From the NCBI GenBank assembly GCA_034180415.1, contig JAXFOK010000059.1, positions 31,772 to 95,771 on the forward strand: a stretch of 64,000 bases of DNA. Reading direction: 5' to 3'. The translations under genes and the position numbers were made by a program. Positions 3,978 through 62,975 of this stretch are shown piece after piece. Each line of letters begins with the position of its first letter. The first letter of the stretch is position 1. A model generated the notes under the pieces. The model did not search any database. It was given only the letters and a program-made list of their open reading frames with translations, and was not told where the DNA came from. The stretch is from Bdellovibrionota bacterium. GTDB lineage: Bacteria; Bdellovibrionota_C; UBA2361; CAKMMH01.

Positions 3978-4015
3978 TTGTTTATTGTTAATAAATTAAG
4001 GTAAGGATATAAAAT

Positions 4016-7655: not shown

Positions 7656-7685
7656 AAAAATTCTAATTGATATTGTAAATTAATA

Positions 7686-9221: not shown

Positions 9222-9222
9222 A

Positions 9223-10476: not shown

Positions 10477-10485
10477 ATTAGCCTC

Positions 10486-11469: not shown

Positions 11470-11564
11470 ATATTTTATAACTCGCAAAAAATTTTTAAAA
11501 ATGTTATTACAGTTATTATTGTCGCGTAAAACTTTAAAAAACTTAAAAACAATCTACTTTGCTT

Positions 11565-20044: not shown

Positions 20045-20063
20045 TTAAAATTTATTCATATTT

Positions 20064-21395: not shown

Positions 21396-21461
21396 TTGCT
21401 TACTTCTCCTAAAAAAGAGTTTAAAAATTTTTACTACTTATTTTTTACTACCTACAACAAA

Positions 21462-27581: not shown

Positions 27582-27653
27582 ACAAGCTATTAAATTATTC
27601 CTTTAATAGCTTATCGATAAAAATTAAAAAATGATGCCTTATGTAAAGTCTAA

Positions 27654-28472: not shown

Positions 28473-28655
28473 AGAAAAACCTTTCAAAATAAAGTTATTA
28501 AATCCATATTAGAAAAATATTACTACTATACTAACTATATATTTGATAAAAAAAACTGAATAAAGGATTTAAAAAAATTACTTTTTACTGTAAATTTTTG
28601 TAAGATTTATGTAAATTATTGGAAACAAAAGAAGATTTTTATTATCTAAATTTAC

Positions 28656-42694: not shown

Positions 42695-42954
42695 CTTATA
42701 TTCTTACTATTAACCATATAGTGATTATGTGTCATACACACAACCTTTTACGTATTAAATATCAAAGAAAAACCTATTATTGTCTAACCTTTCATATTAG
42801 TATTTCTGCTTCATATTTTCAGAATAAAAATTGGATATTTATCATATAAATTCTGATAAATAACTAATTGTAAAAAATTATAAATATATTAATATTCATC
42901 ATAAATTCTTTAAATCTTGACTTATCAAATGAAACAAATTAGATTATTTTACAT

Positions 42955-43038
42955 GCCTGGATGGTGGAATTGGTAGACACGTTGGATTCAAAATCCAATG
43001 CTAGTAATAGCATGAGGGTTCGACCCCCTCTCTAGGCA
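42955..43038 (+). tRNA. tRNA-Leu (anticodon CAA), type II with long variable arm
   Basis: The acceptor stem is GCCTGGA/TCTAGGC. The anticodon stem-loop is TTGGA-TTCAAAA-TCCAA. The variable arm is TGCTAGTAATAGCA and the T arm is GAGGG-TTCGACC-CCCTC. The discriminator is A and CCA is not encoded. Confidence 0.95.
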
Positions 43039-43204
43039 ATTTAATATTCCAATTTTTCAATATTATATCAGTTGATTTAATATAAATTAAAGAATTTCCC
43101 TACTTTGAAGTGCAGCGTACATATTTATTTCAAAAAATGGTTGATTAATTCTCAATTCTTTAAATTTTTACGTGATACTTCATCTATATGTTCAGCAATT
43201 GAGT

Positions 43205-47911: not shown

Positions 47912-50125
47912 TTATTTTTTAGGTCTCTTAAAAGATGACACAGCACCTCTAATTCTAATCTTAGGACTTGACGATAATTTAAATTTTGTAGGTTCTTTGA
48001 CTTCCTTTACTTTTACTACATTTTCATTATTAATTTCTTGATTTTCTTCTTCTATAATTTTTTTATTTTCATTATCTTCATTTTCAGCGCTTTTATTATT
48101 ATCTTTAATTTGTAATCTACTAGAAACACTATCTTTAACTTTTATTCCACCAAAAATTTTATTTTTAAAATTCATACTAGAAAGATTAATTGACCTAGCA
48201 GAAACATTTTCTTCTGTTTTTGGCTTTGGTTTTGATTGCTTAGAATTCTTAGAACTTGAATATTGTGGTTTATCTGTTGATGGTTTTCGTGGTGAATCCT
48301 CATCATCTTCTAAATCTGCTTGTTCAATAGAATAGATTTTTGCATCAACCCATTCAGCAAGCCCGATTTCATCATTTTCAATTTTTTCAAATTGGTTAAT
48401 ATACTCTCTACCTTCCCAAGTTGGAGGAAGATCAGCATTAAACCAAAAAGAACGTCCTTTAACGATTTCACCATTTCCTAAATCAAAATATGCTAAACCT
48501 TTTTCAGCAGACATTTCATGCTTTAATTCCTCTGGGCTTACTAAATCTTTCTCAGCTTCACTTATACTAATATTTTGAGATTCACCACCTGTTTCTTTCA
48601 TTCCAAAAGCGCTACTTGCAACACTAGATGAAACACCACTACCTATCGATCTTTTAACTGCATTAATTTTTCCTATCCACTCTGCCATATCAGCTGCAGT
48701 TTGGTTATCACCTAGTCTCATCATAACTTTTAAGTTTACATTTGCCATCACACGCTCATAGAAAGATTGACTAAGTCCTAATGCTCCATCCATCAAACCA
48801 CCTGTAGATTGAGCCCCGAATAAAAGTGAAAAACGTCCTTTTCTTGCAAGCTCAAAAAGATTTGCCCAAGTAGGACCAAATGTTGACGATCCTTCATCAA
48901 TAATTACAAGATGTGGATCTTCAAGGTTGTGCTGTCTAGATGATGTGATTTCACCAATTGAAACCTCTAAGTCTTCTCTAAATAGTTTTACCATTCTTGC
49001 AGCACTTTCTGCGTCCTCAAGACGAGGAAGCATAAAGTAAATTAATTTTCCTCTTAAAATTGCATCTGTTAAATTTAAATCAGTGTAATTTGTACAGAAG
49101 ATTCCACCCATTGATGAGCTGCTTATCGCATGAAGCTCAGAAGAAATACCTCTTAAATTATCTGTAATTTTTGAAGTATCAAGAATCCCCTTTTTATCTC
49201 TATAACTTGCCGCCAAATGTCCAAGCTCTACTACTGCTTGTTTTGCACCAATTTTTTCAAGCATATTTTTTAAATGTGGATATGCTAAATTAAAAGCCGA
49301 AAGTGCCATCGCTACATCTTTTATAGACCAAGCAAGACCAAAACTCTCAAGCGCTCGTATCATTCTATTTATTGAGTCAGATGCTAATCTATCATAGTGT
49401 TTTGTTGCACTTTGATCAGATGTCGGAGGAAGTCCTGCACGAAGTACCTTTCTTGCTTTAACATCTGCTCTTTGATTTGTAAGAACAAAATTATATGAAT
49501 GAATAGTATCAAATGGATCTACAACAATTAAATCTTCAATTCGCCCAGTAATCAGTGCCATAAGAATAATATCAGCAAGTACACCCGAATCTCTTTTTGC
49601 GTCAATAAATGTAAATCCACTAGCTCTTCCTCTTGCCATTTGTTGAAGCATTAAAGACTCAAGCCATAATGTTTTACCAACGCCTGTTTTTGCGAACACA
49701 CATCCATGGCTACACATATCATTATCACTAAGCCACAACGGTTCACCCGAGTCTAAACTAAAACCTACTAAATACTTGTCAATAATTTTCTTGCCTTTAG
49801 CCCTTGCATCATTAAGTGCAATTTTAAAACAATCTCTCTGTGGCGGCATCCCTAGAACTGCCCTACCACCTCTTAATTCCATTTCATTTCTTCTGTCCTG
49901 TTCAATCATGTAGTCTTTTGCAAGCGATGAAACTATTAAACAATAAAAATATGTTGGAATCGCAGCGCCGAAAATAAATAATACAATTGCTGAAGCATCT
50001 GTCCATATAGGTAATATGACAAAAATAACCATTACAATAGTGGCAATCGTAGCTCTTCTTGTTAAGAGCTCTCTTTCTTGCTCTCGTCGTTCTTCATATG
50101 TTATTTTTTCATACTGTCTTGCCAT
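47912..50125 (-). CDS. Type IV coupling protein (VirD4/TraD/DotL family ATPase)
   Basis: It has two N-terminal TM helices and Walker A FAKTGVGKT preceded by GEPLWLSDNDMCSHG. A Walker B-like HLVIIDEG and LLFGAQS follow. The ~150-aa tail is K/E/S-rich. Confidence 0.85.
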   Translation of the reverse strand: MARQYEKITYEERREQERELLTRRATIATIVMVIFVILPIWTDASAIVLFIFGAAIPTYFYCLIVSSLAKDYMIEQDRRNEMELRGGRAVLGMPPQRDCFKIALNDARAKGKKIIDKYLVGFSLDSGEPLWLSDNDMCSHGCVFAKTGVGKTLWLESLMLQQMARGRASGFTFIDAKRDSGVLADIILMALITGRIEDLIVVDPFDTIHSYNFVLTNQRADVKARKVLRAGLPPTSDQSATKHYDRLASDSINRMIRALESFGLAWSIKDVAMALSAFNLAYPHLKNMLEKIGAKQAVVELGHLAASYRDKKGILDTSKITDNLRGISSELHAISSSSMGGIFCTNYTDLNLTDAILRGKLIYFMLPRLEDAESAARMVKLFREDLEVSIGEITSSRQHNLEDPHLVIIDEGSSTFGPTWANLFELARKGRFSLLFGAQSTGGLMDGALGLSQSFYERVMANVNLKVMMRLGDNQTAADMAEWIGKINAVKRSIGSGVSSSVASSAFGMKETGGESQNISISEAEKDLVSPEELKHEMSAEKGLAYFDLGNGEIVKGRSFWFNADLPPTWEGREYINQFEKIENDEIGLAEWVDAKIYSIEQADLEDDEDSPRKPSTDKPQYSSSKNSKQSKPKPKTEENVSARSINLSSMNFKNKIFGGIKVKDSVSSRLQIKDNNKSAENEDNENKKIIEEENQEINNENVVKVKEVKEPTKFKLSSSPKIRIRGAVSSFKRPKK

Positions 50126-50149
50126 TGATTAAAACTCCAACCTATACTT

Positions 50150-52018
50150 TTATTTATCTCCTTCTTCTAATTTCATTGCAGTAGCCTTTGTGATTTTAAC
50201 CTTCTTGACTTTTTCTATAGATTCACTCCATCTTTCACCTAGATAATCAACAAGTTTAGAAGTCCTAAATAATACTAAACCACTTACATCTTTTATTTCA
50301 TTTTCTTCAGTTAGAAATTTACAATCGATTACCGCGCTATAAGGAACATATCTATCGGATACTCTTTTACCTAACCAACTAAATGCATTTAAACATGAAC
50401 GTAAATTTTGCCAAATTATAACATCATCTAGCTTCGGTAAATATTTTGAAATTTCATCTTTTGTATTTTGAGAAAACTCTTTTAAAAATGAATTATTATC
50501 ATCTGATAGCTTTTTCTGCTCTATTTGTGAAACTAAATTATCAGCCTCTCTTTTGTTATAAACTCTCTTAATAAGATCTGAAAGTTCAAACAAATCATTT
50601 TTTATAGAATCACTTAAAAGAGAATATATGACTTCCAATTTTGCAAATAATTGCCCACCTTCTGTGACAAAAAAGTTTCCTTGCAAGTCATCAGAATTTT
50701 CAATATATTGCACAAATAATCTTGTCCAAGCTTTATGAATTTCCGTTGATTTTGCAAAAAATTGCAATTCATCAATTATAGAGTCTGCATTGTTAAAATG
50801 TAATATTAATTCAAGCCATTGCCTTAATGTATAAGACTGTGTATTCATCTTTAGTGGCATTCTAATTTCTAAGAAATCACTCTTTCTTTCCGCAAAAACT
50901 AAAGCCTTACGTATCATCTCTCTTTCATCAAAATCATATTCATCTCCATAATAAGGAGATGAATGTAAGATTGCACGAGCGCAAAGATGTGGATAATTAG
51001 ATTGCATTGTCCATCTATCATTTGAAATATGTTCATAAGCTAATATTCTACCAGTTTCTAGAGCCATAATAGCAGTAGCAATATTTTTAGGTACTATATT
51101 TTTAAGTTCCTTTTTCATATTTTTAGTTAAACACAGTACCATATTTTCTTTTCGTTTATCATTTTTTGTATCGATATCATTTTCACTAGTAATTTCTTGC
51201 TGAATTTCAAAAGCATTTATAAGAAACTCGTATGTATCTTCAAATAAGTTTCCCGAGCCGATTCCATCGTTAATAAAAGTTGGATAATTGTAATAGTGTA
51301 AAATTATAGATGCTAAATACTTATTTGTTTCATTTTCAGCACCATATTTCTCTAATAAAGTACAAAACGCAGATTTTTTATAAATTTCCTCATTTACTTG
51401 AGATAAACATGTTAGTCCAGTTATATGAAGAGTAGGATTTCCATTTTTATCGCATTTTTTTATACCAGCTCTTACACCTGAAAAGAACATTCTACCGTTT
51501 CCAGCAATTCCTAAAATATCTCTTGCTTTATATGGTTTTACTTTCTTAATTGATTTAATAAAAGCATAAATTACAGCTATTAACCAAACTTTCCATGATG
51601 CTAGTATCACAAACACTAATTGCATAATAGAATTTGAAAATATTACAAATAAAGATATAAGAACATTTGACGAAGGAAACGCTTCACAAACAGAAATAAA
51701 CAATTTAAAAACAAATAACGAAACTAATAAAAAGAAAGTACACTCCCCACTTGTACCAAATGCTGAAAGAAAATCGTGGTATTTATAATAAGTATTTACA
51801 ACAGAAATATTATTATCAATGCTAATAATTTTTTCAGTGTAGCTTACAATCTTTTCATTAACAAAAACATTATTAGAAAAGAGAGGTAATAATTGAATTA
51901 AAGCAATAAGAATAACAAATACAACCCAGGCTATCTGTGAGTAGTTCTTAGCTTTTTCCTCATTCATTAGTGAGGCTAAATCTTTTGTGTCTGCATCATA
52001 TTTAATATTCTTAACCAT
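50150..52018 (-). CDS. 4-TM membrane protein with ~460-aa cytoplasmic helical domain, co-transcribed upstream of the T4CP
   Basis: Four hydrophobic helices lie within residues ~29-155. I see no recognisable catalytic motif. The stop is 25 nt before the T4CP start. Confidence 0.6.
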   Translation of the reverse strand: MVKNIKYDADTKDLASLMNEEKAKNYSQIAWVVFVILIALIQLLPLFSNNVFVNEKIVSYTEKIISIDNNISVVNTYYKYHDFLSAFGTSGECTFFLLVSLFVFKLFISVCEAFPSSNVLISLFVIFSNSIMQLVFVILASWKVWLIAVIYAFIKSIKKVKPYKARDILGIAGNGRMFFSGVRAGIKKCDKNGNPTLHITGLTCLSQVNEEIYKKSAFCTLLEKYGAENETNKYLASIILHYYNYPTFINDGIGSGNLFEDTYEFLINAFEIQQEITSENDIDTKNDKRKENMVLCLTKNMKKELKNIVPKNIATAIMALETGRILAYEHISNDRWTMQSNYPHLCARAILHSSPYYGDEYDFDEREMIRKALVFAERKSDFLEIRMPLKMNTQSYTLRQWLELILHFNNADSIIDELQFFAKSTEIHKAWTRLFVQYIENSDDLQGNFFVTEGGQLFAKLEVIYSLLSDSIKNDLFELSDLIKRVYNKREADNLVSQIEQKKLSDDNNSFLKEFSQNTKDEISKYLPKLDDVIIWQNLRSCLNAFSWLGKRVSDRYVPYSAVIDCKFLTEENEIKDVSGLVLFRTSKLVDYLGERWSESIEKVKKVKITKATAMKLEEGDK

Positions 52019-52129
52019 AAAAAAACTTAAAAACTAAATAAATTTTAAAATTAAATTAATATGATTGTTACTTATGTGGAGCATATAGCGCTTCGGTATA
52101 AAATGGTAATCAAAATTATAAAATATTAA

Positions 52130-52152
52130 ATTGCTTAGAATTTTCAAGCAAT
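52130..52152. promoter_or_regulatory. Inverted repeat in the divergent T4SS control region
   Basis: The repeat is ATTGCTT-agaattttc-AAGCAAT, inside the 558-bp spacer between the two T4SS operons. Confidence 0.25.
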
Positions 52153-52576
52153 TCTCCTTATAGTTATGACCAATACCTACGTATATATCACATAAATTTA
52201 TCACAAATTACTATCTTTTATCAAAAATAATTTCAAAATCTTGTATACTGTATCGGATTTTTATAAAATAAAATAAATAGTAAAGCATGTCCTAAAGTTT
52301 ATTTTTTTAATGTTTTGAAGCTAAAAATTTACTTAATAATTTCAACAGGTTACCAAGACTGCTAATTCGTATAAATATAATTACTATTTAATTTAATATA
52401 TTAGAATAAATTTGTAAAAAAATTGAAGCAAAAATGTACGTTATCATGATATGCAATCGGTAGAATTTTAACTAAATTTTATCAAGGTTTTTTATTAAAG
52501 GACCGAAGTTACACTATGAGTTGATTTATGATATGATACATAGCCAACTTAAAATGCAAGAAGGAGATATATATAT

Positions 52577-52927
52577 ATGAAACTAACTAAGGTATTTTAC
52601 TTACTAGTTATTTGTATTCTTTTATTTTCAATAACCGCATCAGCACAAGACACGCCATTTATCGAGCAAGCAACTGATGCACAAGTTAAAAAAGCTCAAG
52701 GACATTACGCGAGAGCACGTTCCCTACTAATAGCAGCAATAAATGAATTTGACAGAGCAACTAGTGTTGCTAACCCTGAGTCTTTGTTAGATGTTAGCAG
52801 ATTTAGAACTACTTTAATTGATAGGGCTGAAGAGCTAGAAAGAATTTTAGACCCTCAGCCTAGAACATCAAAAGAAGGAGTACGTTTTTCCCCTGATACT
52901 AGATTATTAGGTGAGGCAGTTAATTAA
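52577..52927 (+). CDS. Small secreted helical protein, possibly RAQPRD-family-like (ICE-associated)
   Basis: AGGAG RBS. The signal peptide is LLFSITASA/QD. A C-proximal ILDPQPRTSKEG recalls the RAQPRD motif. It is the first gene of the Tra-like operon. Confidence 0.45.
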   Translation: MKLTKVFYLLVICILLFSITASAQDTPFIEQATDAQVKKAQGHYARARSLLIAAINEFDRATSVANPESLLDVSRFRTTLIDRAEELERILDPQPRTSKEGVRFSPDTRLLGEAVN

Positions 52928-52953
52928 TTGTATTTTATTTTTTAGGAGTTTTA

Positions 52954-53367
52954 ATGGATAATGGTGACGTTATTCCTAATTTAGATGCCCCTTGGGATTT
53001 CTTATCAACAAGAATACAAGAGTGGATCATTGGAGCAATAGTCGGTTTAATTGTAAATGAATTATTTTTTACAAGTGCCGCTAGTTCTATGCCATTTATC
53101 TTCATTACGATTGTGCTAACAGCATATGGATTAAGTTGTGCAAGAAGAAAGTTTGCTGATGGTTCACGTGGTTTTGTAAATTACTGCTGCGTGAAAATGG
53201 GAATCATACCTCCAGGAATTCCAGCTCCTAGTGAGCTACAACCTGTTTGGAGCGGTGCACCTATGAGAAGAATAAAAAGTGATACATTATACATGCAACT
53301 TGGCTTTGATGAATTCTTTTTGGAAAGAAAAGAGGAAAAATTAAAACAACAAGAAGGAAGGTTATAA
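52954..53367 (+). CDS. TraL-like (VirB3-analogous) small inner-membrane protein
   Basis: AGGAG RBS. The N-terminal IPNLDAPWDFLSTRIQEW is followed by two TM helices and a Pro-rich GIIPPGIPAPSELQPVW. It sits immediately before the TraE-like gene. Confidence 0.5.
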   Translation: MDNGDVIPNLDAPWDFLSTRIQEWIIGAIVGLIVNELFFTSAASSMPFIFITIVLTAYGLSCARRKFADGSRGFVNYCCVKMGIIPPGIPAPSELQPVWSGAPMRRIKSDTLYMQLGFDEFFLERKEEKLKQQEGRL

Positions 53368-54027
53368 ATGGTTAACTTAAGAGAAACTGGAAAAAACGTT
53401 TTAAATAACACAAATATTAATGAATATAAACGTGGTGATGATACCATAAGAATATGGGAAGGCTACAGACAACAGGCCGTCATGTGGCGTGCGCTGTCAA
53501 TTATGCAATTACTAGCTACTACTGCAGTTTCAATTCTGTGTATTATTTTATGGCAGACAAGACAAGTCGTTTTAAATGTTCCTCAACGCCCAGTTCCTGG
53601 ACAATATAACACTCAAGAAATACCAGATGCCGATTTAATAGAAGCAGCAACTACATTTGTAAATTTAATTGCTACATTTCAACCTTATACAGCTAAAGCA
53701 CAATTTGAACGTGCTGGCGCATATGTACATGATGAATATTACCAAAAATTTACTGATGAGACTTTAGGAAGTGAACTTAAAGCTATTATACAGACTTCTC
53801 TTTCTCAAGTGTTTTATATAGATCCATCAAAAACAACGGTTGAGAGAAATAAAAACAACACTGTAATAGTTCATCTATACGGTGTTAGGCATAAATATAT
53901 TAGTGGTGAAGAAAGAGAACCAGTTAAATCTATGTATGAAGTTTTCCTAACGACTCTTCCAAGAAATGAGTTAAACCCATTGGGGATTGTCGTATATGAT
54001 AGTAACTTACAGATTATAGAAAATTAA
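53368..54027 (+). CDS. TraE/VirB8-like bitopic protein
   Basis: It is translationally coupled (TAAATG). It has a single TM helix (LLATTAVSILCIILW) and a ~150-aa periplasmic domain. That domain has the pattern PDADLIEAATTFVNLIATF...SLSQVFY, which parallels F TraE. Confidence 0.6.
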   Translation: MVNLRETGKNVLNNTNINEYKRGDDTIRIWEGYRQQAVMWRALSIMQLLATTAVSILCIILWQTRQVVLNVPQRPVPGQYNTQEIPDADLIEAATTFVNLIATFQPYTAKAQFERAGAYVHDEYYQKFTDETLGSELKAIIQTSLSQVFYIDPSKTTVERNKNNTVIVHLYGVRHKYISGEEREPVKSMYEVFLTTLPRNELNPLGIVVYDSNLQIIEN

Positions 54028-54048
54028 ATTAATTAAAGAGAATTAACT

Positions 54049-54864
54049 ATGAAAAAAATGACTATGAAAAGAAACATAAAATTATTTAAAACATCATTTA
54101 TTGCATTATGTGCTATCTTATTGATAACAAATTTTGCCTTTGCTAGAGATGTTGAATATAAAGGAACAGAGCTTGATGTCTTTGTATCACCTGGTGAACC
54201 AACGCAAGTACAATTTCCTTCAAAAGTATTAGGTGGATTTAAAAAGAAACTTTCTGCAATATCACTTGATAAAAAAGGATATGATTTAGTTATTTTTGCA
54301 ACTGAACAGCTAACAGAAACTGGCGAATCAATGATTATACGTCTTGATGATGGACGCTCTTATACATTAAGAGTAAAAAAAGCAAATGCAACAAATAAAG
54401 ACACTCTTGTAAGAATTATTGATAAGAGTCAATCAATTTTGACAAGCTCTGGAGCAGAGATTGATGAAAGCGATAATGTAAAAGATCCTCAATTAACTTT
54501 TGCACCTCCTACACAAGTTTCAGGATTAATGAGAGAAATGATTTTAGCGTCTGAATTTGGAAAAGGTGCAATTAACGGATATCGTGCAACAGATAAATAT
54601 AGAGGTGAGACTGTAATAAACGATGGCGCGATTCATGCAACAATTGATACGATTTTCATAGGGACTAATCTTTGGGGCTATGTGCTAGATGTTAAAAATC
54701 TTCTAGATGTATCTCAAAAGCTTAATCCTGCGACCTTTAGACTTGATGGCACACGGGCAATTTCTTTTGAAAAATGGGAATTATCCCCTCAACCATTAAA
54801 TATTGAAGAGCAAATAGCTAAAGGACATAAAACTAAGGTTTATATTGTAACTAGGGCTAGATAA
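54049..54864 (+). CDS. TraK/VirB9-like outer-membrane-complex protein
   Basis: It has a signal peptide. The C-terminal GTNLWGYVLDVKNL...GTRAISFEKW...KVYIVTRA resembles the TraK C-terminus. Confidence 0.6.
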   Translation: MKKMTMKRNIKLFKTSFIALCAILLITNFAFARDVEYKGTELDVFVSPGEPTQVQFPSKVLGGFKKKLSAISLDKKGYDLVIFATEQLTETGESMIIRLDDGRSYTLRVKKANATNKDTLVRIIDKSQSILTSSGAEIDESDNVKDPQLTFAPPTQVSGLMREMILASEFGKGAINGYRATDKYRGETVINDGAIHATIDTIFIGTNLWGYVLDVKNLLDVSQKLNPATFRLDGTRAISFEKWELSPQPLNIEEQIAKGHKTKVYIVTRAR

Positions 54865-54910
54865 AAGATACTAAAAAGGAAAAAGTTTTTAATTTAAAGG
54901 GTAAGAAAAA

Positions 54911-56104
54911 ATGGCTCGAAAGACAGATGATATAAAAATGATGGTAACGAAAGACAGAAAAACACAAATGACCATAATAGGTGTAGGTGTTTTTCTGGTT
55001 ATAGGCCTTATGGTGTTTCTTACGAGTGCAGATAAATATAAGACTAAGCGTATGACCACAACACGTACATCTACAAAAACTGTGACACCAAAAGATGAAC
55101 ATTTAGATGATTTTGTAAAAAGCTTTAAATCAGATTTAACACAACTTCAAAAAGATCAAGTAGAAGCACAAAAAGAAATGAAAGAATTAGGAAACAGATT
55201 AGATGTATACGAAAGAAGAACCTCAGATATCTTCAAAAAAATCTTAGAAAAAATTGCGGATATTGAAGTTGGAAGTGGCGGTAATGGTTACGATGTAAAT
55301 AACACTTCTGTCGTATCTGATGATTTAATGTTGGAAGATCAAGATAATGTTGATAATAACGGCGAGGGAGAAGGACAAGATCAGTTAGAATCATTCTTTG
55401 ATGAAAAAGAAAATGTTAAGCCTGTTCAAAAAGAAATTAAAAAGAAAGTCGCATTTGTAGCTCCAGGAGACACCGTAAGGGTAAAACTTCTAGGAGGTGT
55501 TAACGCGCCAACAGATGGTACTCCATATCCTGTGATTTTCAAATTAATTTCTCACGTAGCAGGTCCTGACAACTCTCAACTTCCTCTTGGCGAAGCAAGA
55601 CTTATTGCCGCCGCTCAAGGTTCAATTGTAGATCAAAGAGCTTTATTTAGATTAACTAAATTAAGTATAAGATTACCAAATGGTGAAAGAAAGGTAGTTT
55701 CAGTAGATGGTTGGATCGTCGGTGAGGATGGTATTAGAGGATTAAAAGGCATTCTTATTGACCCTATCGGTAAAGCAATTACAGGAGGTTTAATGATAGG
55801 AGGTCTGGCTGGAGCTGGTGAAGCAATCTCTGATGCTAATTCAACCGTTCTTCACAATTACGATAGCGATCAAAGAATTATTACTGGAGATACCGGAAGA
55901 TACGCTTTAGGTGAAGGCTTAAGTAAAGGCTCTGAGGTATGGTCAGAAGTATTAAGAGATAGATTAAAAGAAATGGTTCCTGTAGTTCAAATTCTTTCAG
56001 GTAGAGAAGCTACTGCTACTTTTGCAAATGAAGTAACAATAGAAGATTTATATGAACAATTAGAAGATGAAAACGGTTATGACCAATTTAATGGTATGGA
56101 TTAA
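54911..56104 (+). CDS. TraB/VirB10-like protein
   Basis: It has a TM helix (IIGVGVFLVIGLMVFL), a coiled coil and an acidic linker. The C-terminal VKLLGGVNAPTDG...LGEARLIAAAQG...VDGWIVGEDGIRGLKG is typical of F-type TraB. Confidence 0.7.
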   Translation: MARKTDDIKMMVTKDRKTQMTIIGVGVFLVIGLMVFLTSADKYKTKRMTTTRTSTKTVTPKDEHLDDFVKSFKSDLTQLQKDQVEAQKEMKELGNRLDVYERRTSDIFKKILEKIADIEVGSGGNGYDVNNTSVVSDDLMLEDQDNVDNNGEGEGQDQLESFFDEKENVKPVQKEIKKKVAFVAPGDTVRVKLLGGVNAPTDGTPYPVIFKLISHVAGPDNSQLPLGEARLIAAAQGSIVDQRALFRLTKLSIRLPNGERKVVSVDGWIVGEDGIRGLKGILIDPIGKAITGGLMIGGLAGAGEAISDANSTVLHNYDSDQRIITGDTGRYALGEGLSKGSEVWSEVLRDRLKEMVPVVQILSGREATATFANEVTIEDLYEQLEDENGYDQFNGMD

Positions 56105-56128
56105 TTTTTATTAGGAGTTTACTTTATA

Positions 56129-56584
56129 ATGAAAACAATTATTAAGAAATTTTTATTAATTACTTTTTTAAGCATGTGTCTTAGTGGTTGCTATGCACTT
56201 CAAAATATTTTTAATCCATTTTACGAACCGCCAACAGAACATGCGCTAAAAGGTGAACTTAACGACCGCGCTATTCAAGAAGGCACTACAAGTCTAGGTA
56301 GTAGTGCAAGAGATGCTCTTGAAAATATTGCTTCATACCAAAGAGCTCATTTACCTCAACCAAACAACCCAGTAATGCAACCAGCCGTTGTAAGACTTAT
56401 GTGGATTCCAGATCATTTAAACAATAGTGGTGATTTAATTCCTGCACACTATTATTACCTAAAAGTATTAAATGAAAGATGGGCAGTAACTGACGCTTTT
56501 GATTTAGAAAAACAATTAGGTAGTGGAAGTAAAGATACGTCTAGTATCCCTTATGTAAGTCAAACGCAAAAAAATAGGTTCTAA
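56129..56584 (+). CDS. TraV-like lipoprotein
   Basis: It has the lipobox LSGC. The C-terminal VRLMWIPDHLNNSGDLIPAHYYYLKVLNERW parallels the TraV W-x-P...G...W tail. Confidence 0.5.
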   Translation: MKTIIKKFLLITFLSMCLSGCYALQNIFNPFYEPPTEHALKGELNDRAIQEGTTSLGSSARDALENIASYQRAHLPQPNNPVMQPAVVRLMWIPDHLNNSGDLIPAHYYYLKVLNERWAVTDAFDLEKQLGSGSKDTSSIPYVSQTQKNRF

Positions 56585-56587
56585 ATT

Positions 56588-57049
56588 ATGAAAAATTTTA
56601 ATATGAAACTTTTTATATTAATTATTGTTATGTTATCAATGTCAGGGTGCCACTATAAATATACTGGCACAAATAGTACCCTTGATAGACGTGTTCATAT
56701 TTTTGCTGTTAGGCAATCACCTCTTCCACCTACATATAATAGAATACGAACTGTACACTTAGCTGAGCCTCTTCCAAGTAGAGATAACCATCCTGTTTCA
56801 AATAGAATTATTACTCCTGTTTTTCAATTTGAAGCAGAAAATTCTACATTTGATGAAGTTGCTCTAATTTTAGCAAATACTGCAAAATATTCTGCTCATT
56901 GTGATCCAGATATTGCAAATAAAAAAGTTTCAATTATAACTCTAGGTACTATCGATGAGATAGCAAAAGAGATTGAAAATGAAACAGGTATTACAGTTAA
57001 CATAGATCATAAAAATAAAGAGGTTAGATTTTTAGGTAGTAAAAAATAA
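56588..57049 (+). CDS. Lipoprotein with secretin-N0/TcpQ-PilL/DotD-like C-terminal domain
   Basis: It has the lipobox MSGC. The C-terminal FEAENSTFDEVALILANTAKY...VSIITLGTIDEIAKEIENETGITVNID has a beta-alpha-beta N0-like pattern. Confidence 0.4.
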   Translation: MKNFNMKLFILIIVMLSMSGCHYKYTGTNSTLDRRVHIFAVRQSPLPPTYNRIRTVHLAEPLPSRDNHPVSNRIITPVFQFEAENSTFDEVALILANTAKYSAHCDPDIANKKVSIITLGTIDEIAKEIENETGITVNIDHKNKEVRFLGSKK

Positions 57050-57109
57050 TGCTGTTAGCAATTAATTTTATAATTATGTAGGTTAAACGAGATTAGGAGA
57101 ATTTATATT

Positions 57110-59815
57110 ATGAGTATATCAAGACTCCAAAAAGAAAGGTTATTTCATGACGAAGAGCTATTTAATGAGTTGTTGTCATATGCAGAGTATGACGAAGATT
57201 ATAGAATTTTCTTTCATACAGATACTTCATTCTGGGCAATTTTCAGATTACAACCTTTAGGAATAACAAAAGTTTCAGATAATGACGCTTTTCAAACTGC
57301 TGAAGCAATTCAAGAACTTTTTGATACATTCGATACAAATATAGCTGTTCAAGTTAACTGGATTACAAGTTTTGAAATCGAAAGTTTACTAAAAGAAAAT
57401 TTAAACGCTTACCCTCTTTCAGGACCTGCTGGTTGGATGGCAAGAAGGTGGATTAGATCAATAAGAAATGCCGCAAATAGTAGCGAGTTTGGATTACGTC
57501 CTAAGAAATTAGATTTACTTTTTTGCTTTAGGTATGACCCAAAATGGAAAAGTAGAGATATGGTAGGTCAAATCATTGAAGGATTTAAATCTGTCTTTTC
57601 ATTTTCAAACAATATGACAGCAGATAGAAGAAGACAAGAGTATTATGAAAATGCAAATAAATTTAAAGGTATTCTAGAAGGTACTTCAGCAAAACTTGCT
57701 GATATGGGATTTCATCCTTATCAATTTGATGCTCAAGATTTAATTGATTTAATGTTCCCTCTTTTAAATAGAAGAAGTATTAAAGGTGGGAAATATAAAC
57801 GTGGAAGAAATACTAACGTTGCAGTCCCTGTATATGACCCACAAGAAATTTTAACAAATCAAATTTCAGAAACAAAAGTTGATCATCCGGAAAACGGTAT
57901 TATTAAAAAAGATGGCAGAGTTTACAGGACTGTTTCAATGGTTGAAACTCCTAAACAATGTTTACCATTAATGATTGCACCTCTTCAATGTGCATCATAT
58001 GAAAATATTTTAAGTGTCACTTATTCAAAAGATTCTCAACAAGAACAAATTAAAAAGCTTGACCAAAAAGATGCTATGTTAGGTTTTCGTGAAGTTACCG
58101 CAAGAGGTCGTGCGAACCAAAAAGCACTTCATCGAATTTCAGCAATAAGAGCAGCAAGAGCAGAGCTTTATGCTTCAAGATGTCAAATCGTAAGAGTCGG
58201 TGTACATCAAACTTTTATTTGCCAAAATGAAGATGAGGCAAAGCGTGCAACGTCAGAAGCAATCGCTACTATTTCTCAGATTAACGGCGCTCGTGGTATG
58301 GTTCATGAAATCTCCGATTTAGCAACTTTCGTTCATTCATTACCAGCGATGTATGACCCTGAAATGGACGGTGAAGGTTGGACTGTTACACTCCGTTCGT
58401 CAAGAGCATCAAGGTTATACCCTATTTATGGTAACTGGAGAGGAACAAGGGGGAAACAATTTTTACTTCCATCTCTTTGGAATAGAGAGTTAGTAGGATT
58501 TGATTTATATGATTCAAACATTGCTCCAAACGTTTTAATAAGTGGTGTATCAGGTGCCGGTAAAAGTTACCTACTTTGCTATATGCTTATAACCTTAGCT
58601 CGTGGTCACTTTGCATCTTTACCAAATGGACAAAGTGTTGAGAAACCCCCTATTACGTTCGTTTTTGATAAAGGTATGACAGGTCAACCTTGTGGATTTG
58701 AAAAAGTTGCAAAACTTTTTGGAGGAAGAATATACGAAGCAACTCCTTCAAAAGCGCCGGCTATGAACTTCCTTGCTCGTCTTGGACGTACTGCTCCTGA
58801 CCCTAGAAACGAAGACTATAAAGATTTAATAGATATGTGCGCAGATATTATTTGCGATATGGCTGTTGAAGGTTCAAAACAACCAGGACGACTTGAAAAA
58901 AATGTCGTAGTTGCATCTCTTGTCGAAGCTCATAGGCTTTATAGAAATGGTCCAATGAGAAGAGAATTTATTTTAAGTGATGCAGTTGCTGTGTTAAGAG
59001 CGCCAAGAAGAGTTGATGAAGATGAAGATACTGCCAAAAGGCGTCAACTTGTTGCCATGCTTATTGGTGATTACTATGGTGACGGAACTTACGCTAGATT
59101 CTTTGATAGACCTGGTGCTTTAAAACTTCAAGAAAGATTTATTGTATTTGACTTAAAAGCATTAAGTAGAAACCCAGACTTACAAAGAGTATTCTTAAAA
59201 GTTGCAATGCTTTGGGCTGACACTGTGATGAATGACCCAATGGAGTTAGACTGTAGGAAAATATTAGTATTTGATGAAGCACATGACTTAATTGGAAAGA
59301 CTGCATCAGGAACTGTAGAAACTGCATTTAGATTATATCGTAAAAGAAAAGGTATCGTAATTGCAGCTTCTCAATCTGGTGAAGATTTCTATTTAGGAGA
59401 AGGTGGGCAAGCAATCGTTCAAAACTCAGCTCATAAGATCTTTTTAAAACAAGATCCTAGCAAGTTTCATATGACAGCAAAAGCTTTTAATTTATCACCT
59501 CAACAAGCTGATGTTATTTTAAGACTTAGAACTATTAAGGGACTAGAGTCGCAATTTTATTTAATATCTGATATTGGAGAATCAGCTTTAGTACTTCCAC
59601 TTGAACCAGCTTTTTATTGGGTAAGTACCAATAATGGTGATGATAACCAATTATTTGCAGATGTATTAAAGCAAAACAACGATGACTTCTTAAAAGCACT
59701 AGAGCAAGTTGTCGCAATTGCACCAAATGGAGCACATGCATTTAAAATGCAGATGGATACAAATAAAAAGAATGAAATAAACATGAACAGTTTTTTTAAT
59801 GATATGGAGAAATAA
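57110..59815 (+). CDS. VirB4-family T4SS ATPase (TraC-like)
   Basis: It is 901 aa with an AGGAG RBS. It has Walker A ISGVSGAGKSY, Walker B ILVFDEAHDL and AASQS. Confidence 0.85.
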   Translation: MSISRLQKERLFHDEELFNELLSYAEYDEDYRIFFHTDTSFWAIFRLQPLGITKVSDNDAFQTAEAIQELFDTFDTNIAVQVNWITSFEIESLLKENLNAYPLSGPAGWMARRWIRSIRNAANSSEFGLRPKKLDLLFCFRYDPKWKSRDMVGQIIEGFKSVFSFSNNMTADRRRQEYYENANKFKGILEGTSAKLADMGFHPYQFDAQDLIDLMFPLLNRRSIKGGKYKRGRNTNVAVPVYDPQEILTNQISETKVDHPENGIIKKDGRVYRTVSMVETPKQCLPLMIAPLQCASYENILSVTYSKDSQQEQIKKLDQKDAMLGFREVTARGRANQKALHRISAIRAARAELYASRCQIVRVGVHQTFICQNEDEAKRATSEAIATISQINGARGMVHEISDLATFVHSLPAMYDPEMDGEGWTVTLRSSRASRLYPIYGNWRGTRGKQFLLPSLWNRELVGFDLYDSNIAPNVLISGVSGAGKSYLLCYMLITLARGHFASLPNGQSVEKPPITFVFDKGMTGQPCGFEKVAKLFGGRIYEATPSKAPAMNFLARLGRTAPDPRNEDYKDLIDMCADIICDMAVEGSKQPGRLEKNVVVASLVEAHRLYRNGPMRREFILSDAVAVLRAPRRVDEDEDTAKRRQLVAMLIGDYYGDGTYARFFDRPGALKLQERFIVFDLKALSRNPDLQRVFLKVAMLWADTVMNDPMELDCRKILVFDEAHDLIGKTASGTVETAFRLYRKRKGIVIAASQSGEDFYLGEGGQAIVQNSAHKIFLKQDPSKFHMTAKAFNLSPQQADVILRLRTIKGLESQFYLISDIGESALVLPLEPAFYWVSTNNGDDNQLFADVLKQNNDDFLKALEQVVAIAPNGAHAFKMQMDTNKKNEINMNSFFNDMEK

Positions 59816-59818
59816 AAA

Positions 59819-60127
59819 ATGAAATTAAAATTAAATAATATTTTGATTGACGCATCACTTATTATATTAAGTGTGATGATGACTGCTTGTGCTACTACAG
59901 TTCAAAGGCAATCTTCTCAAGCGTTAGAAATTAAGCATAACGACAAACAATATTTAAAAGAAGATCCTGCTGTAGTTGATTACATCTGGGAAGAACCGAT
60001 GGTAGATGTTGTAAGAGTACCACCTGGATTAGACCCAGAGGGAATATATTATAGGCCTGAACATAAAGAAGTTATTGAAATAAGGCAAGGCAAATGGCAG
60101 TACTATAAAAAACCCGTAGAGGAGTAA
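59819..60127 (+). CDS. Small lipoprotein (second TraV-tail-like motif)
   Basis: It has the lipobox MTAC. IWEEPMVDVVRVPPGLDPEGIYYRPEHKEVIEIRQGKW is present. Its start is 4 nt after the TraC-like stop. Confidence 0.45.
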   Translation: MKLKLNNILIDASLIILSVMMTACATTVQRQSSQALEIKHNDKQYLKEDPAVVDYIWEEPMVDVVRVPPGLDPEGIYYRPEHKEVIEIRQGKWQYYKKPVEE

Positions 60128-60227
60128 ATACAGTGGAAAAAAATAAGCAATTTATAAAGTTTTACTTTTAAATTGTTTATTTTTTATTTATAGTTTTAAG
60201 AGTTTATTTAATTTAAGGTATTTTGAT

Positions 60228-60566
60228 ATGGGACTTGTAAAAACTGTTTTTTCACCTCTTACTAATACAACACCACTTGTAACAATAATATTGGTTATTG
60301 TTTTAGTGGCTATTTTCAGATTTTCTGGAGGTGGAATAAGTATAGGTGATGTTAAAAATCATAAAGCCATGAAAACTGCAAAAGTTACAAAAAATATTGA
60401 AGAATCACCTTCTAATGAACTTCAGAGGGAAGGTACTATAAAAGTAGATGCAGTTGAATTTGATAGGATGCTGAGAATGCGTCCACAAAAAAAGAAGGAA
60501 GAAGTTAAAAAAGATAAGCCTGTAAACAACTTTGATTCAATTGAAGCTGATTTAGGATTAAGATAG
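60228..60566 (+). CDS. Hypothetical single-TM protein with K/E-rich tail
   Basis: It has a TM helix LVTIILVIVLVAIF. An AT-rich 100-bp gap precedes it, possibly holding its own promoter. Confidence 0.4.
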   Translation: MGLVKTVFSPLTNTTPLVTIILVIVLVAIFRFSGGGISIGDVKNHKAMKTAKVTKNIEESPSNELQREGTIKVDAVEFDRMLRMRPQKKKEEVKKDKPVNNFDSIEADLGLR

Positions 60567-60569
60567 TTT

Positions 60570-61100
60570 ATGAAAGAAAATGAATTTGTGATATATAAAA
60601 CATGGAAAAGCGAATATAAGCTTGTAATAGGAATGCTTTTAGGCATGTTCCTTTCTGTGTTTTTATCAAGTAAATTCCCCCAAACCGTCGTTGTTGGAAA
60701 TTTATTTAACATTGGTAGCGAGAGTGTAAATTTATATCTTCCTGTATTTTGGTTAATACCGTGTGGTTTCTTTCTTTATGCGCTTATTAGAATTTATAAT
60801 GTTAAGTATTGCTTAACTAGCAAGGGATTAGAGATGACTGTCGGCATACTATCTGCAAGGAAACGATCTGTTAAAATTAGATATGAAGATATCAGAAGTG
60901 TAGAAACCATGCAAACTATTCTTGAAAGGATTTTAAACATTGGAAGTGTAGAAGTCGGAACTTCTGCTACTGGTGCTATCGAAATTGTATTTGAGGGCGT
61001 AGATGCACCTCAAGAAATTCAAGCATTAGTTCAAAAAGAAAAAGGAAGAAGATTGTCGCTAAGTAAAGGAAATAATGGATTTAACACATCTAATGAGTAG
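60570..61100 (+). CDS. Membrane protein with bacterial PH (bPH_2, YdbS/YdbT-like) domain
   Basis: It has two TM helices. The bPH-like region reads YCLTSKGLEMTVGILSARKRSVKIRYEDIRSVETMQTILERILNIGSVEV. Confidence 0.65.
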   Translation: MKENEFVIYKTWKSEYKLVIGMLLGMFLSVFLSSKFPQTVVVGNLFNIGSESVNLYLPVFWLIPCGFFLYALIRIYNVKYCLTSKGLEMTVGILSARKRSVKIRYEDIRSVETMQTILERILNIGSVEVGTSATGAIEIVFEGVDAPQEIQALVQKEKGRRLSLSKGNNGFNTSNE

Positions 61101-61111
61101 GTAAGGTTTTT

Positions 61112-62125
61112 ATGAAGAAGTTTTTTATAAACATATTATTTAATAATCACCTAGCTAACAGAAATGCTAGTAAGAAATTTGTATGTTTATTAACTTTTTG
61201 CATAGTTAGTTTGATTTCAAATAATGTTTTTGCTCAAGAAGATAATAATAATTCTCTATTAAACAAAGAAAGAATGATTTTAGAGCAGTTAAATATTTTA
61301 AAAAGAAATAATATTGATACTGTAGATGATAAGAGAAATGATATTATAGAACCTACAAATACATTAGAAGCTACGCCTACAAATACATTAATTCCAACAT
61401 ATACCGATACTACTTCCCCTACTCCTACAAAGGTAATAGTTAATATTAAGAAAAATGAAAGAAAGGAAACTGATATAACTAACGATAATAAACCTTCTAA
61501 TACTTTTCCTCAAAAAGATATAGAAGTTATATTAAATGGAAACACTTCAATAAATGATAATACTACTAAAAGCGATGTTTCATGTTCTAAAGAACGCAAC
61601 CAATTAGAAATTGCAAACCAAAAAATATTAGAATTATATACTGAATTAGAAAACAAAAAGAAACAATTGATTTTAGTAGAAACTGAAGTAGAGAGACTAT
61701 CTGAAGTAATTGAAAAAAGAAATAGAGCAGAGCTTGGTAATGGTGCGTCACCATCTCCTAATATTGTTAACAAAAATGCAGTACATCAAAGACAACAAAT
61801 ACAAATGAGAAAACCAATAAATGATTTAGAGGCAGAAAAAGCTGATATGCCGATAGCGGTTGTTATAGTTAACAAGGCTAATTTAAGAGCAGGACCTAGT
61901 TTAAAGGATTCGCCTCTTCTTGAAGTGTCAAAGGGGACTCGTTTGGTTGTAGAAACAAGACAAGGAGCTTGGTATAGGGTTATGGCACCAAACGGGAAAC
62001 GAGCATGGGTATCTTCTGATGTAGTAAATTTTGGTCCTAATGCTAATTCTAAGCCATCTTTTACTACTCGAATAAAAGGTTATAATCAAGATGTTGAGGA
62101 CAGGACTGAAAGTATATTTAAATAA
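61112..62125 (+). CDS. Secreted/anchored protein: T/P-rich linker, coiled coil, C-terminal SH3b domain
   Basis: It has an N-terminal hydrophobic segment and a PTNTL repeat region. The C-terminal SH3_3-like sequence is ANLRAGPSLKDSPLLEVSKGTRLVVETRQGAWYRVMAPNGKRAWV. Confidence 0.6.
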   Translation: MKKFFINILFNNHLANRNASKKFVCLLTFCIVSLISNNVFAQEDNNNSLLNKERMILEQLNILKRNNIDTVDDKRNDIIEPTNTLEATPTNTLIPTYTDTTSPTPTKVIVNIKKNERKETDITNDNKPSNTFPQKDIEVILNGNTSINDNTTKSDVSCSKERNQLEIANQKILELYTELENKKKQLILVETEVERLSEVIEKRNRAELGNGASPSPNIVNKNAVHQRQQIQMRKPINDLEAEKADMPIAVVIVNKANLRAGPSLKDSPLLEVSKGTRLVVETRQGAWYRVMAPNGKRAWVSSDVVNFGPNANSKPSFTTRIKGYNQDVEDRTESIFK

Positions 62126-62591
62126 AATTTTTTATACTTTTAGCATCATTTTTTTATGCATAAACTCTTCTTATGCATCTGAGCCTTTTGTAAATCCCAT
62201 AATGAGTGCAAGATTATCATCTCATTACGGACGTCGCATTCATCCAATTAAAAAATTTAGCTCAACCCATAGTGGAATAGACCTTGCGGCCCCTATGGAT
62301 TCCCCTATTCGCGCAGCACAAAAAGGGATGGTTATTTTTGCAGATCGTTACGCCGGTTATGGTAATTTAGTGGTTATTCGTCATCAAAACGGGATGACGA
62401 CGCATTATGGCCATTGTTCAAAGATTTTAGTTGATCCCGGGACTTTTGTTAAAGCTGGTGAAATAATCGCAAGAATTGGAAGTACGGGGGTTTCCACAGG
62501 GCCTCATTTACACTTTGAAATCAGATTTAATGGTGTTCCTACTGATCCGTTAAAAGTTTTCCCAGATTTGTTAACAATAGCTAAAGGATAA
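62091..62591 (+). CDS. M23-family (LytM-type) peptidoglycan endopeptidase
   Basis: It has its own signal peptide (FSIIFLCINSSYA/SE). M23 motifs are present: HSGIDLAAP, GYGNLVVIRH, GSTGVSTGPHLHFE. It overlaps the upstream ORF by 35 nt in another frame. Confidence 0.85.
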   Translation: MLRTGLKVYLNKIFYTFSIIFLCINSSYASEPFVNPIMSARLSSHYGRRIHPIKKFSSTHSGIDLAAPMDSPIRAAQKGMVIFADRYAGYGNLVVIRHQNGMTTHYGHCSKILVDPGTFVKAGEIIARIGSTGVSTGPHLHFEIRFNGVPTDPLKVFPDLLTIAKG

Positions 62592-62699: not shown

Positions 62700-62975
62700 A
62701 TGTCTGAGAAGAAAAAATGCACTTGTGATAATCATGAATATGGTTGCTGTAAGGGTAACTGTTGTGAAAAACACCATGACAAATGCTCTCATACGAAAGT
62801 AAAAGCAAACACCGTTAAGCCTTTTCCCGCCTGGAGTGATCCATGCGAAAGCACAGACGAAACTCAAATTTGCGCAAACCATGATTGGCCCATCGAGGAC
62901 GCAAGCAACGTTTTTAATGTTGATACCGAAGGAAGTCAAGGGGAAAAACTTCCCCCTGATGCTTGGTACAACTAA
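62700..62975 (+). CDS. Small Cys/His-rich protein of unknown function
   Basis: A strong RBS (AAAGGAG) lies 7 nt before the ATG. The N-terminal CTCDNHEYGCCKGNCCEKHHDKCSH is followed by an acidic C-terminal half. Two hairpins follow the gene. Confidence 0.55.
   Translation: MSEKKKCTCDNHEYGCCKGNCCEKHHDKCSHTKVKANTVKPFPAWSDPCESTDETQICANHDWPIEDASNVFNVDTEGSQGEKLPPDAWYN

Follow-up and report, generated by a model that had tools for sequence, protein, structure and literature searches.

A chromosomal type IV secretion locus of F-type character, conserved in a clade of uncultured Bdellovibrionota

A 64,000-nucleotide stretch of a Bdellovibrionota bacterium genome (GenBank assembly GCA_034180415.1, contig JAXFOK010000059.1, positions 31,772 to 95,771 of the forward strand; hereafter the window) was found to carry a locus for a type IV secretion system (T4SS) of F-type character. 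The sequence evidence makes it very probable that this locus encodes a working, vertically inherited T4SS from the F-type lineage, which would be a stable chromosomal trait of an uncultured, AT-rich and flagellated Bdellovibrionota clade. F-type T4SSs have, to our knowledge, been described almost exclusively from mobile elements, on which they transfer DNA. A chromosomal version that is fixed in a clade of a predatory phylum, is under purifying selection and has no linked relaxase points to a function that serves the host, such as predation, symbiosis or DNA release. The explanation that we favour, in which the apparatus would export proteins, has as a whole about an even chance of being correct.

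The locus spans 47912-62591 and consists of 15 genes in two divergent operons, which are listed below; coordinates of open reading frames (ORFs), junctions and the spacer are window positions throughout. A preliminary description of the window had given the coordinates, order and sizes of these ORFs, and our ORF calls agreed with it. The same holds for the AT-rich spacer of 558 bp and for the TAAATG translational-coupling junction at 53365-53370, where the ORF ends show that the stop codon of the gene in TraL position abuts the start of traE. The rightward operon extends beyond the third lipoprotein gene, the last one named in that description, to four more co-oriented and conserved genes that lie within the coordinates it gave and encode a protein with one transmembrane (TM) helix, a bPH protein, an SH3b protein and an M23 peptidase. 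The SH3b and M23 genes overlap by 35 nt.

47912-50125 (−): type IV coupling protein (T4CP), an ATPase of the VirD4/TraD/DotL family, 737 aa (Pfam, NCBIfam, PDB, motifs)
50150-52018 (−): p622, membrane protein of 622 aa, encoded upstream of the T4CP gene in the same operon (hydropathy, AlphaFold2 model)
52019-52576: divergent promoter spacer, 558 bp, 21.7% GC (composition)
52577-52927 (+): p116, secreted helical protein of 116 aa that heads the mating-pair-formation (MPF) operon (signal peptide)
52954-53367 (+): 2-TM protein of 137 aa in TraL/VirB3 position (topology, position)
53368-54027 (+): TraE (VirB8-like), bitopic, inner membrane (Pfam, NCBIfam)
54049-54864 (+): TraK (VirB9-like), periplasmic/outer-membrane core, with signal peptide (Pfam, at family level)
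54911-56104 (+): TraB (VirB10-like), bitopic (Pfam, NCBIfam, PDB)
56129-56584 (+): TraV (VirB7-like) lipoprotein, lipobox LSGC (Pfam, at family level)
56588-57049 (+): lip153, clade-specific lipoprotein of 153 aa, lipobox MSGC (lipobox, collinearity)
57110-59815 (+): TraC, VirB4-family ATPase (Pfam, NCBIfam, Walker motifs)
59819-60127 (+): lip102, clade-specific lipoprotein of 102 aa, lipobox MTAC (lipobox, collinearity)
60228-60566 (+): p112, 1-TM protein (kept in most loci)
60570-61100 (+): 2-TM protein with a bacterial PH domain (Pfam bPH_2, 6.4e-9)
61112-62125 (+): secreted SH3b protein of peptidoglycan-binding type (Pfam SH3_3, 8.6e-10)
62091-62591 (+): secreted M23 peptidase, final gene of the operon (Pfam Peptidase_M23, 4.7e-36)

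Profile matches in Pfam, NCBIfam and PDB bore out the proposal that these genes encode a coupling ATPase and a T4SS with the TraL-E-K-B-V-C arrangement. TraE matched Pfam TraE (PF05309; 1.3e-9, over the gathering score) and TIGR02761 (4.6e-6). TraB matched Pfam TrbI (1.3e-12, over the gathering score), the NCBIfam model of F-type TraB (5.8e-13) and the solved TraB proteins of pED208/F (7spb and 7okn, at 5e-9). For TraC, we found matches to Pfam TraC_F_IV (2.3e-12; 47.1 bits against a gathering score of 28.1) and P-loop_TraG (8.5e-9), and both the Walker A motif (GVSGAGKS) and the Walker B motif (ILVFDE) are intact. Its top NCBIfam model was TIGR02746, TraC-F-type (9e-57), at 192 bits against a cut-off of 567; as judged from these scores, the F-like character of TraC lies at the level of its domain, and the protein is not an equivalog. 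The window's TraK and TraV proteins alone gave TraK_C at 5e-4 and Pfam TraV at 0.0067, respectively. Among 17 orthologs of each, TraK_C was matched by 10 (best 1.9e-6) and TraK_N by three, and Pfam TraV was matched by 14 (best 3e-4). By these profile matches the two assignments, weak singly, hold at family level. The MPF_F core order L-E-K-B-V-C was thus recovered, by coordinates and families, for TraE, TraK, TraB and TraV. The remaining label, TraL-like, stands as regards position and 2-TM topology and has no support from sequence: a comparison of the family with F TraL gave an hhalign probability of 1%. The family has its own conserved N-terminus, MDNGEVIP.L...W.F.G....EW.

TraC is also set apart from its homologs elsewhere. 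In a HMMER search of 1.84 billion representatives clustered at 50% identity, the clade came down to one representative (69% identity, 1446 bits), and the next full-length neighbours were 24-29% identical, at no more than 202 bits. These outgroups were themselves sub-threshold F-like proteins, with 280-395 bits on TIGR02746 against the cut-off of 567. None of the plasmid TraC matches (n = 3761) exceeded about 23% identity. On these comparisons TraC branches deeply and separately within the F-like part of the VirB4 family. In full-text literature searches we found no description of such a T4SS in Bdellovibrionota or Oligoflexia. The isolated TraC cluster and this literature result agree with the earlier suggestion of an undescribed T4SS subtype. 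The individual parts are of known kinds. New are their combination, the presence of the system as a fixed trait in a predatory phylum, the components specific to the clade and the modularity of the T4CP.

TraC homologs with 62-89% identity were found in 34 GTDB species genomes, most of them recorded as metagenome-assembled genomes of Bdellovibrionota or Bdellovibrionales and others labelled Pseudomonadota/Proteobacteria, Deltaproteobacteria, Candidatus Dadabacteria or just 'bacterium'. At least 299 further homologs, named "TraC family protein", "hypothetical" or unnamed, were present in a large protein collection. All 34 genome loci and five metagenome contigs (L039-L043; the prefix L denotes compared loci) share a collinear block from p116 to lip102. 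The p116 gene was found in every locus that extends to its position, and lip153 sits between TraV and TraC in every locus. The last block gene that is universal among the relatives is lip102, with L018 and L025 having none of the genes beyond it. In most loci lip102 is followed by p112, sometimes the bPH gene (found in part of the clade only), SH3b and M23; the SH3b gene is collinear in most loci and the M23 gene in 27, at 43-78% identity. Many loci also have neighbours in common, namely IspG, Tgt, the conserved protein c16 of approximately 180 aa and a 739-aa protein that faintly resembles a Ser/Thr kinase of the window (E 7e-4). Such common housekeeping neighbours across species indicate a conserved chromosomal neighbourhood and not a mobile island.

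L001 and L003, the two closest relatives, were used to estimate the ratio of non-synonymous to synonymous substitution rates (dN/dS). In each of the two comparisons, 14 of the 15 genes had values of 0.05-0.27, which are rough, with dS saturated, but clearly well below 1. The exception, p112, gave 0.18 with L001 and 0.62 with L003, and in the latter comparison its dS (0.68) does not fit that of the other genes. The genes are under purifying selection. GC content at third codon positions (GC3) was 0.12-0.27 in the T4SS genes and 0.12-0.23 in host genes.

The gene order and families are nonetheless those of a conjugative MPF module, and the only RNA gene of the window, a tRNA-Leu gene (42954-43039), lies 5 kb to the left. 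The locus could therefore be a fragment of an ordinary integrative and conjugative element (ICE) or plasmid with the missing genes just outside the window. The flanks were extended via contigs of the same species by approximately 6.8 kb on the left and 10 kb on the right, which brought the examined DNA to approximately 79 kb. In the left 47 kb of the window, 30 larger ORFs were scanned with Pfam at E<=1e-4, smaller ORFs as well as 1799-2434 and 32426-33088 lying outside the scan; 18 ORFs of 43787-63921 were scanned at E<=0.01, and for the extended flanks precomputed Pfam tables were used. The left 47 kb are housekeeping in character (Mur ligase, Ddl, a Ser/Thr kinase with PP2C, HtrA, FlgE/FlgD/FapA, RecJ, DNA polymerase III delta and delta', MreB/C, PBP2 and RodA). 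Beyond the window we found thrS, rarA, an M20 peptidase, OmpA and dxs on the right, and flhB-like genes, a histidine kinase, an epimerase and a radical-SAM gene on the left.

Across these scanned ORFs there was no family match to a relaxase or an integrase, and the approximately 79 kb contained no oriT-like element or accessory nicking gene. Likewise, neither a relaxase nor an oriT-like element or nicking gene was found within 10 kb on either side of the T4SS in 39 related loci. The 3' end of the tRNA-Leu gene is not repeated anywhere in the window, and no att repeat was found. The region from tRNA-Leu to thrS was also considered as an island and rejected, as it showed no att-like repeat and no compositional difference. 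The preliminary description had held that missing F-type genes, a relaxase or integrase and att repeats just outside the window would make the locus an ordinary ICE fragment; none of these was found in the flanks. With housekeeping genes on both sides, host-like GC3, a block that is collinear across many species (often beside ispG and tgt) and a TraC that is at most 23% identical to any plasmid match, an ICE or plasmid fragment is largely refuted and most improbable. As far as sequence comparison can tell, the locus is chromosomal, vertically inherited, host-adapted and not mobile. The earlier view of a domesticated chromosomal T4SS thus held, on the strength of collinearity, dN/dS, GC3 and the lack of relaxase, integrase and att matches.

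Two further statements about absent genes were followed up. No relaxase, integrase, TraG/VirB6 or TraW/U/N/F/H was found among the scanned ORFs of the window, as had been stated. No VirB11-type ATPase is encoded in or beside the locus either. The claim that the window has no VirB11/DotB-like ATPase at all was too broad, as a T2SSE-superfamily ATPase of 514 aa, the size of PilB/GspE, is encoded at 26037-27581, 20 kb from the T4SS; it is the sole VirB11-superfamily member in the window. Nor is a missing VirB11 unusual, since F-type systems are normally without it.

The window's locus is smaller than those of many relatives. In 22 loci, the M23 gene is followed by a gene for a pilin-like protein of approximately 135 aa (for instance L010:15369-15755, L021:15749-16168 and, in two copies, L019:15998-16865). 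The proteins of this family have an extended leader and a cleavage-type site, A-x-A-Q, as well as two hydrophobic helices that hardly vary. Their profile aligned with Agrobacterium VirB2 at an hhalign E-value of 2e-4, with 33% identity over 64 columns that include the cleavage site, and not with F TraA (E 0.48). One member matched Pfam TrbC/VirB2 at 0.0058, and one database member has a precomputed PF04956 match. The family counts at least 1297 members, all unannotated. Its AlphaFold2 model is a helical hairpin, a fold for which Foldseek is uninformative. Between the M23 and pilin genes, L026 and L032, and only these, carry a TraX gene (8e-30).

In addition, the metagenome loci L040, L041 and L043 have five co-oriented genes between p622 and p116 (in L040 at 1512-7723, −). 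Four encode secreted proteins of 211, 355, 275 and 482 aa (x211, x355, x275 and x482), of which x275 has a CFYC motif. The fifth encodes a polytopic protein of 699 aa (x699), whose L040 copy matched TraG_N at 9e-8, with 31.9 bits against a gathering score of 36.1. The sizes and order of the five mirror what we take to be those of TraW-TraU-TraF-TraH-TraG of F. The four secreted proteins of L040 had no match in NCBIfam, Pfam or a tblastn search against plasmids, and might be assigned to TraW, TraU, TraF and TraH from size, order and signal peptides only.

At the window's locus these parts are missing. The 64 kb contain no pilin-like small ORF with two helices, the hidden Markov models of the pilin and TraG-module families had no match in the window, and those of the TraG module had none in L001-L038. 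The terms minimal and stripped-down, used in the preliminary description, therefore fit this locus and not the system at large, given the 22 relatives with a pilin gene, the two with TraX and the three with a TraG_N-like module. The absence may reflect a split locus, and we lean slightly towards the pilin, TraX and the TraG_N-like five-gene module being encoded elsewhere in this genome rather than lost. The gonococcal F-type system does not need a functional pilin to secrete (PMC4207684), so a locus without pilin can still secrete.

The missing genes, which relatives have, could also mean that an ancestral F-type system has lost pilin and TraG/W/U/F/H and that the locus is what remains of it, decaying and without function, the more so as TraW, TraU, TraF, TraH and TraG are required in the gonococcal system (PMC4207684). 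However, all 15 ORFs are intact, including the ATPase motifs, and dN/dS is low for all genes except p112 in the comparison with L003. Moreover, three species have this reduced layout in common, namely that of the window and those of L001 and L003, which form one sublineage. We regard decay as highly unlikely.

Candidates for the missing functions within the window were rejected. The protein p116 is not a pilin, as it has no hydrophobic segment beyond its signal peptide; it is marked by the conserved motif HYARARSLL...EFD...WR..L.DRAE.LE..L.PQPR. At L021:5067-5738, a 223-aa protein has a tandem p116 domain with two copies of HYAR...EFD...DRAEDLxRIL.P.P. To the left of the T4CP gene, two polytopic proteins with 13 and 11 TM helices are encoded at 43787-47784 (+) in DNA of 22-25% GC. 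Each has a C-terminal soluble domain of approximately 215 aa; neither protein has a Pfam match, and in shape they resemble GT-C glycosyltransferases. Only the second recurs, beside the T4CP in L003. They were not accepted as VirB6 substitutes, given their 11-13 TM helices with a soluble C-terminus, the lack of a family match and their being kept only in L003. At the other end, the position of the relatives' pilin gene, between the M23 gene and thrS, is taken by a Cys/His-rich ORF of 91 aa (MSEKKKCTCDNHEYGCCKGNCCEKHH...; 62700-62975, +), which is called as a gene on contigs of the same species.

The leftward operon encodes the coupling module. The T4CP has two N-terminal TM helices, a P-loop (AKTGVGKT), a Walker B motif (LVIIDE) and a low-complexity tail of approximately 150 aa. 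It matched Pfam TraG-D_C at 2e-6, over the gathering score, and the NCBIfam models TrbC_conju (7e-17) and SXT_TraD (4e-16), both far under their cut-offs. Its only sequence match in the PDB was Legionella DotL/IcmO (1e-14, residues 122-203). Orthologs with 61-80% identity occur in approximately 18 loci. The partner protein p622, always paired with the T4CP (approximately 20 loci, 25-67% identity), has a cytoplasmic domain of approximately 460 aa. The ORF and N-terminal helices of what had been described as a 4-TM protein were recovered; the count is 3-4 by hydropathy and 5 in the AlphaFold2 model. This model (predicted local distance difference test, pLDDT, 66.6) had no Foldseek match in the PDB at E<1. 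Its top matches, which were non-significant, were helical domains of phosphodiesterase type; as p622 has neither an HD motif nor a family match, we rejected p622 as an HD/MOBH-like relaxase. An accessory or adaptor role of p622 is inferred.

In most loci the order is c19, T4CP, p622 and then the divergent MPF operon. The c19 gene encodes a conserved protein of approximately 160 aa without family (examples are L010:94-579, L026:4658-5173 and L003:17158-17706); it is not present in the window and may be a further component or adaptor of the system. In L019, L026, L028 and L032, c19 directly adjoins p116, and T4CP and p622 are not between them. The T4CP is a separable module. A full-length homolog is encoded on pLBX, a 505-kb linear plasmid of the cyanobacterium Leptolyngbya boryana (NZ_AP014640.1, 352855-354924, corresponding to L046:14926-16995), with 58.6% identity over residues 24-601 and 51-55% in whole-length alignments. 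The next-best plasmid T4CP matches were approximately 28% identical. On pLBX the gene is divergent from a protelomerase gene and near parAB, and within 15 kb there is no p622, MPF homolog or other T4SS gene. In a neighbour-joining tree the pLBX protein branches outside the entire Bdellovibrionota set, which suggests that the T4CP alone was exchanged between phyla.

These occurrences leave room for a pilus, adhesion or uptake organelle, that is, a surface structure or ComB-like DNA uptake system of which T4CP and p622 would be unrelated neighbours. The MPF operon is complete in at least the four loci named above, in which it has no adjoining T4CP/p622; three of these have the pilin gene (L028 ends before its position) and L026 and L032 have TraX as well. 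Furthermore, the mature pilin is nearly invariant across the clade, and the T4CP occurs as an orphan elsewhere. In contrast, T4CP and p622 share a divergent promoter region with the MPF operon in approximately 20 species and are under purifying selection, and the window's sublineage keeps the T4CP with no pilin gene nearby, the opposite of what a pilus-only system predicts. We consider such an organelle unlikely.

In the explanation that we favour, TraK, TraB and TraV would form the outer-membrane core together with lip153 and lip102, and TraE, the 2-TM protein in TraL position and the TraC ATPase would make up the platform in the inner membrane. Local opening of the peptidoglycan would fall to the secreted SH3b and M23 proteins rather than to a VirB1-type lytic transglycosylase, and the T4CP, with its membrane partner p622, would bring cytoplasmic substrates to the channel. 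As cargo we favour, over its rivals and with somewhat less than even confidence, proteins that are exported upon contact into another cell, either prey or host. This preference follows from the lack of a linked relaxase here and in any relative, together with the system not being mobile. The earlier suggestion of a repurposing for effector export is plausible.

A domesticated DNA-handling system would be the closest competitor in function. It would export DNA or exchange it, whether by a conjugation-like transfer of chromosome or plasmid between members of the clade or by releasing single-stranded DNA (ssDNA) independently of contact, as the gonococcal island does, and its relaxase would be encoded at another site of the genome. 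All F-type systems that have been studied well are known to move DNA, a T4CP is present, and the nearest outside relative of this T4CP stands in a DNA-centred context, its plasmid being linear and its gene having a protelomerase gene and parAB as neighbours. Among chromosomal systems the gonococcal genetic island comes closest as a precedent; it is of F-type and uses TraD and TraI to secrete ssDNA, with no need for a functional pilin (PMC4207684). Against it stand the searches for a relaxase, an oriT-like element and a nicking gene described above, which found none in the approximately 79 kb or around the 39 related loci, and the conserved chromosomal synteny, which argues against self-transfer of the locus. 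DNA handling is therefore a less probable, though quite conceivable, function.

Several results weigh against protein export by an F-type apparatus as set out here. TraW/U/N/F/H, TrbC and TraG/VirB6 had no family match in the scanned ORFs of the approximately 79 kb, and a genuine absence of TraW/U/F/H/G could mean that the apparatus works differently from F-type machines. The protein in TraL position, p116, lip153 and p622 had no match in Pfam or NCBIfam; p622 had no homolog in plasmids either. PDB-sequence profile searches gave nothing significant for these four proteins, nor for TraK, TraV and the pilin family. There is no homology support for the roles of lip102, p112 and the bPH protein, and p112 had no family match. 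The T4CP may not be dedicated to this T4SS, as it is unlinked in at least four relatives, the loci in which c19 adjoins p116, and solitary on the cyanobacterial plasmid. Finally, no effector, chaperone or translocation signal was identified from the sequence, so the cargo is purely a matter of inference.

Comparison with known systems places the locus closest to the F-type ones. With F and pED208 (MPF_F) it shares the core order of TraL-position protein, TraE, TraK, TraB, TraV and TraC, the PDB match of TraB, the TraC_F_IV domain, the lack of VirB11 and, in two relatives, TraX. It differs from them in being chromosomal, vertically inherited and not mobile, with no relaxase or oriT found, and in having all equivalog scores far under the cut-offs. 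The pilin of the relatives is like VirB2/TrbC and not like F TraA, no TraN or TrbC was found, and the window has no candidates for a pilin or TraG/W/U/F/H. Conversely, p116, lip153, lip102, p112 and the bPH protein are specific to the clade, and SH3b and M23 genes are present instead of a lytic transglycosylase gene.

The gonococcal genetic island is likewise an F-type machine that serves something other than self-transfer, and it has the same divergent operons, with TraD on one side and TraL-E-K-B-V-C on the other. The island was acquired horizontally and is present in 60-80% of strains only (PMC8716806), whereas inheritance is clade-wide here. Its genes include those for the relaxase TraI, for ParA/ParB and for a complete TraW/U/N/F/H/G set, all of them required for secretion (PMC4207684), while the window has no relaxase or TraW/U/N/F/H/G set. 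SXT/R391 and PFGI-1/ICEclc (MPF_F and MPF_G) share the L-E-K-B-V-C order and a TraD-type T4CP, as seen in the SXT_TraD match, but no integrase, MOBH relaxase or att site was found here. The models of the PFGI-1 class scored far lower than their cut-offs (TIGR03744 traC_PFL_4706, 40.8 bits against 520.6; TIGR03752, 33.5 against 241), and no other PFL-family model matched, which places the locus outside MPF_G.

In the Dot/Icm gene order dotM directly precedes dotL, and here, too, a membrane-protein gene stands directly before the T4CP gene. DotL is, moreover, the only solved T4CP that the window's T4CP matched. However, p622 has no detectable similarity to DotM in sequence or fold, and the rest of the machine is F-like; with only the T4CP being DotL-like, the locus does not belong to type IVB. 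The rvh T4SS of Rickettsiales is similar in concept, being fixed in its lineage, vertically inherited, spread over several loci and without a linked relaxase. It is of P-type (VirB/D4) and has only the VirB4, VirB8-10 and VirD4 families in common with the locus described here.

A more far-reaching scenario, which we regard as speculative and rather doubtful, is that an F-type machine was captured long ago and became an organelle that defines the lineage and injects prey or host cells with proteins or with nucleoprotein. The form kept in the window's sublineage would be a reduced core without pilus and TraG, together with a horizontally exchangeable DotL-like T4CP and p622. If true, this would be the first F-type-derived effector or predation T4SS. 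Independently of the cargo, the natural series of architectures in the clade, in which the T4CP, the pilin and TraX, and the TraG-like module are each present or absent, can show which F-type parts are dispensable. The loci also define conserved families that are annotated as hypothetical where they are named at all (p116, lip153, lip102, p622, c19 and a pilin family of more than 1,000 members), as well as a T4CP subfamily common to this clade and a cyanobacterial linear plasmid.

Within the spacer between the two operons, a block at approximately 52420-52495 is kept in L001 and L003, and the rest of the spacer is not. This block, which may be a regulatory site as judged from its conservation, reads TTGAAGCAAAA ... 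GGTAGAATTTT..AACTAAATTTTATCAAGGTTTTTT. The spacer also contains the sequence TTGAAGC(A/T)AAA twice, at a distance of 108 nt. A sigma-70 consensus scan of the spacer was uninformative (55 sites against 69.8 expected), and the promoter and terminator scan was not used, as it gave fewer sites than shuffled sequence.

Elsewhere in the window, the T2SSE ATPase gene lies beside a gene for a protein with bacterial TSP3 repeats (26037-28487, −). The eukaryote-type Ser/Thr kinase, an unassigned 417-aa protein and the PP2C phosphatase are encoded in one operon at 7890-11487 (−). The flagellar hook genes flgE, flgD and fapA are located at 18587-22124, and from these genes the organism is probably motile.

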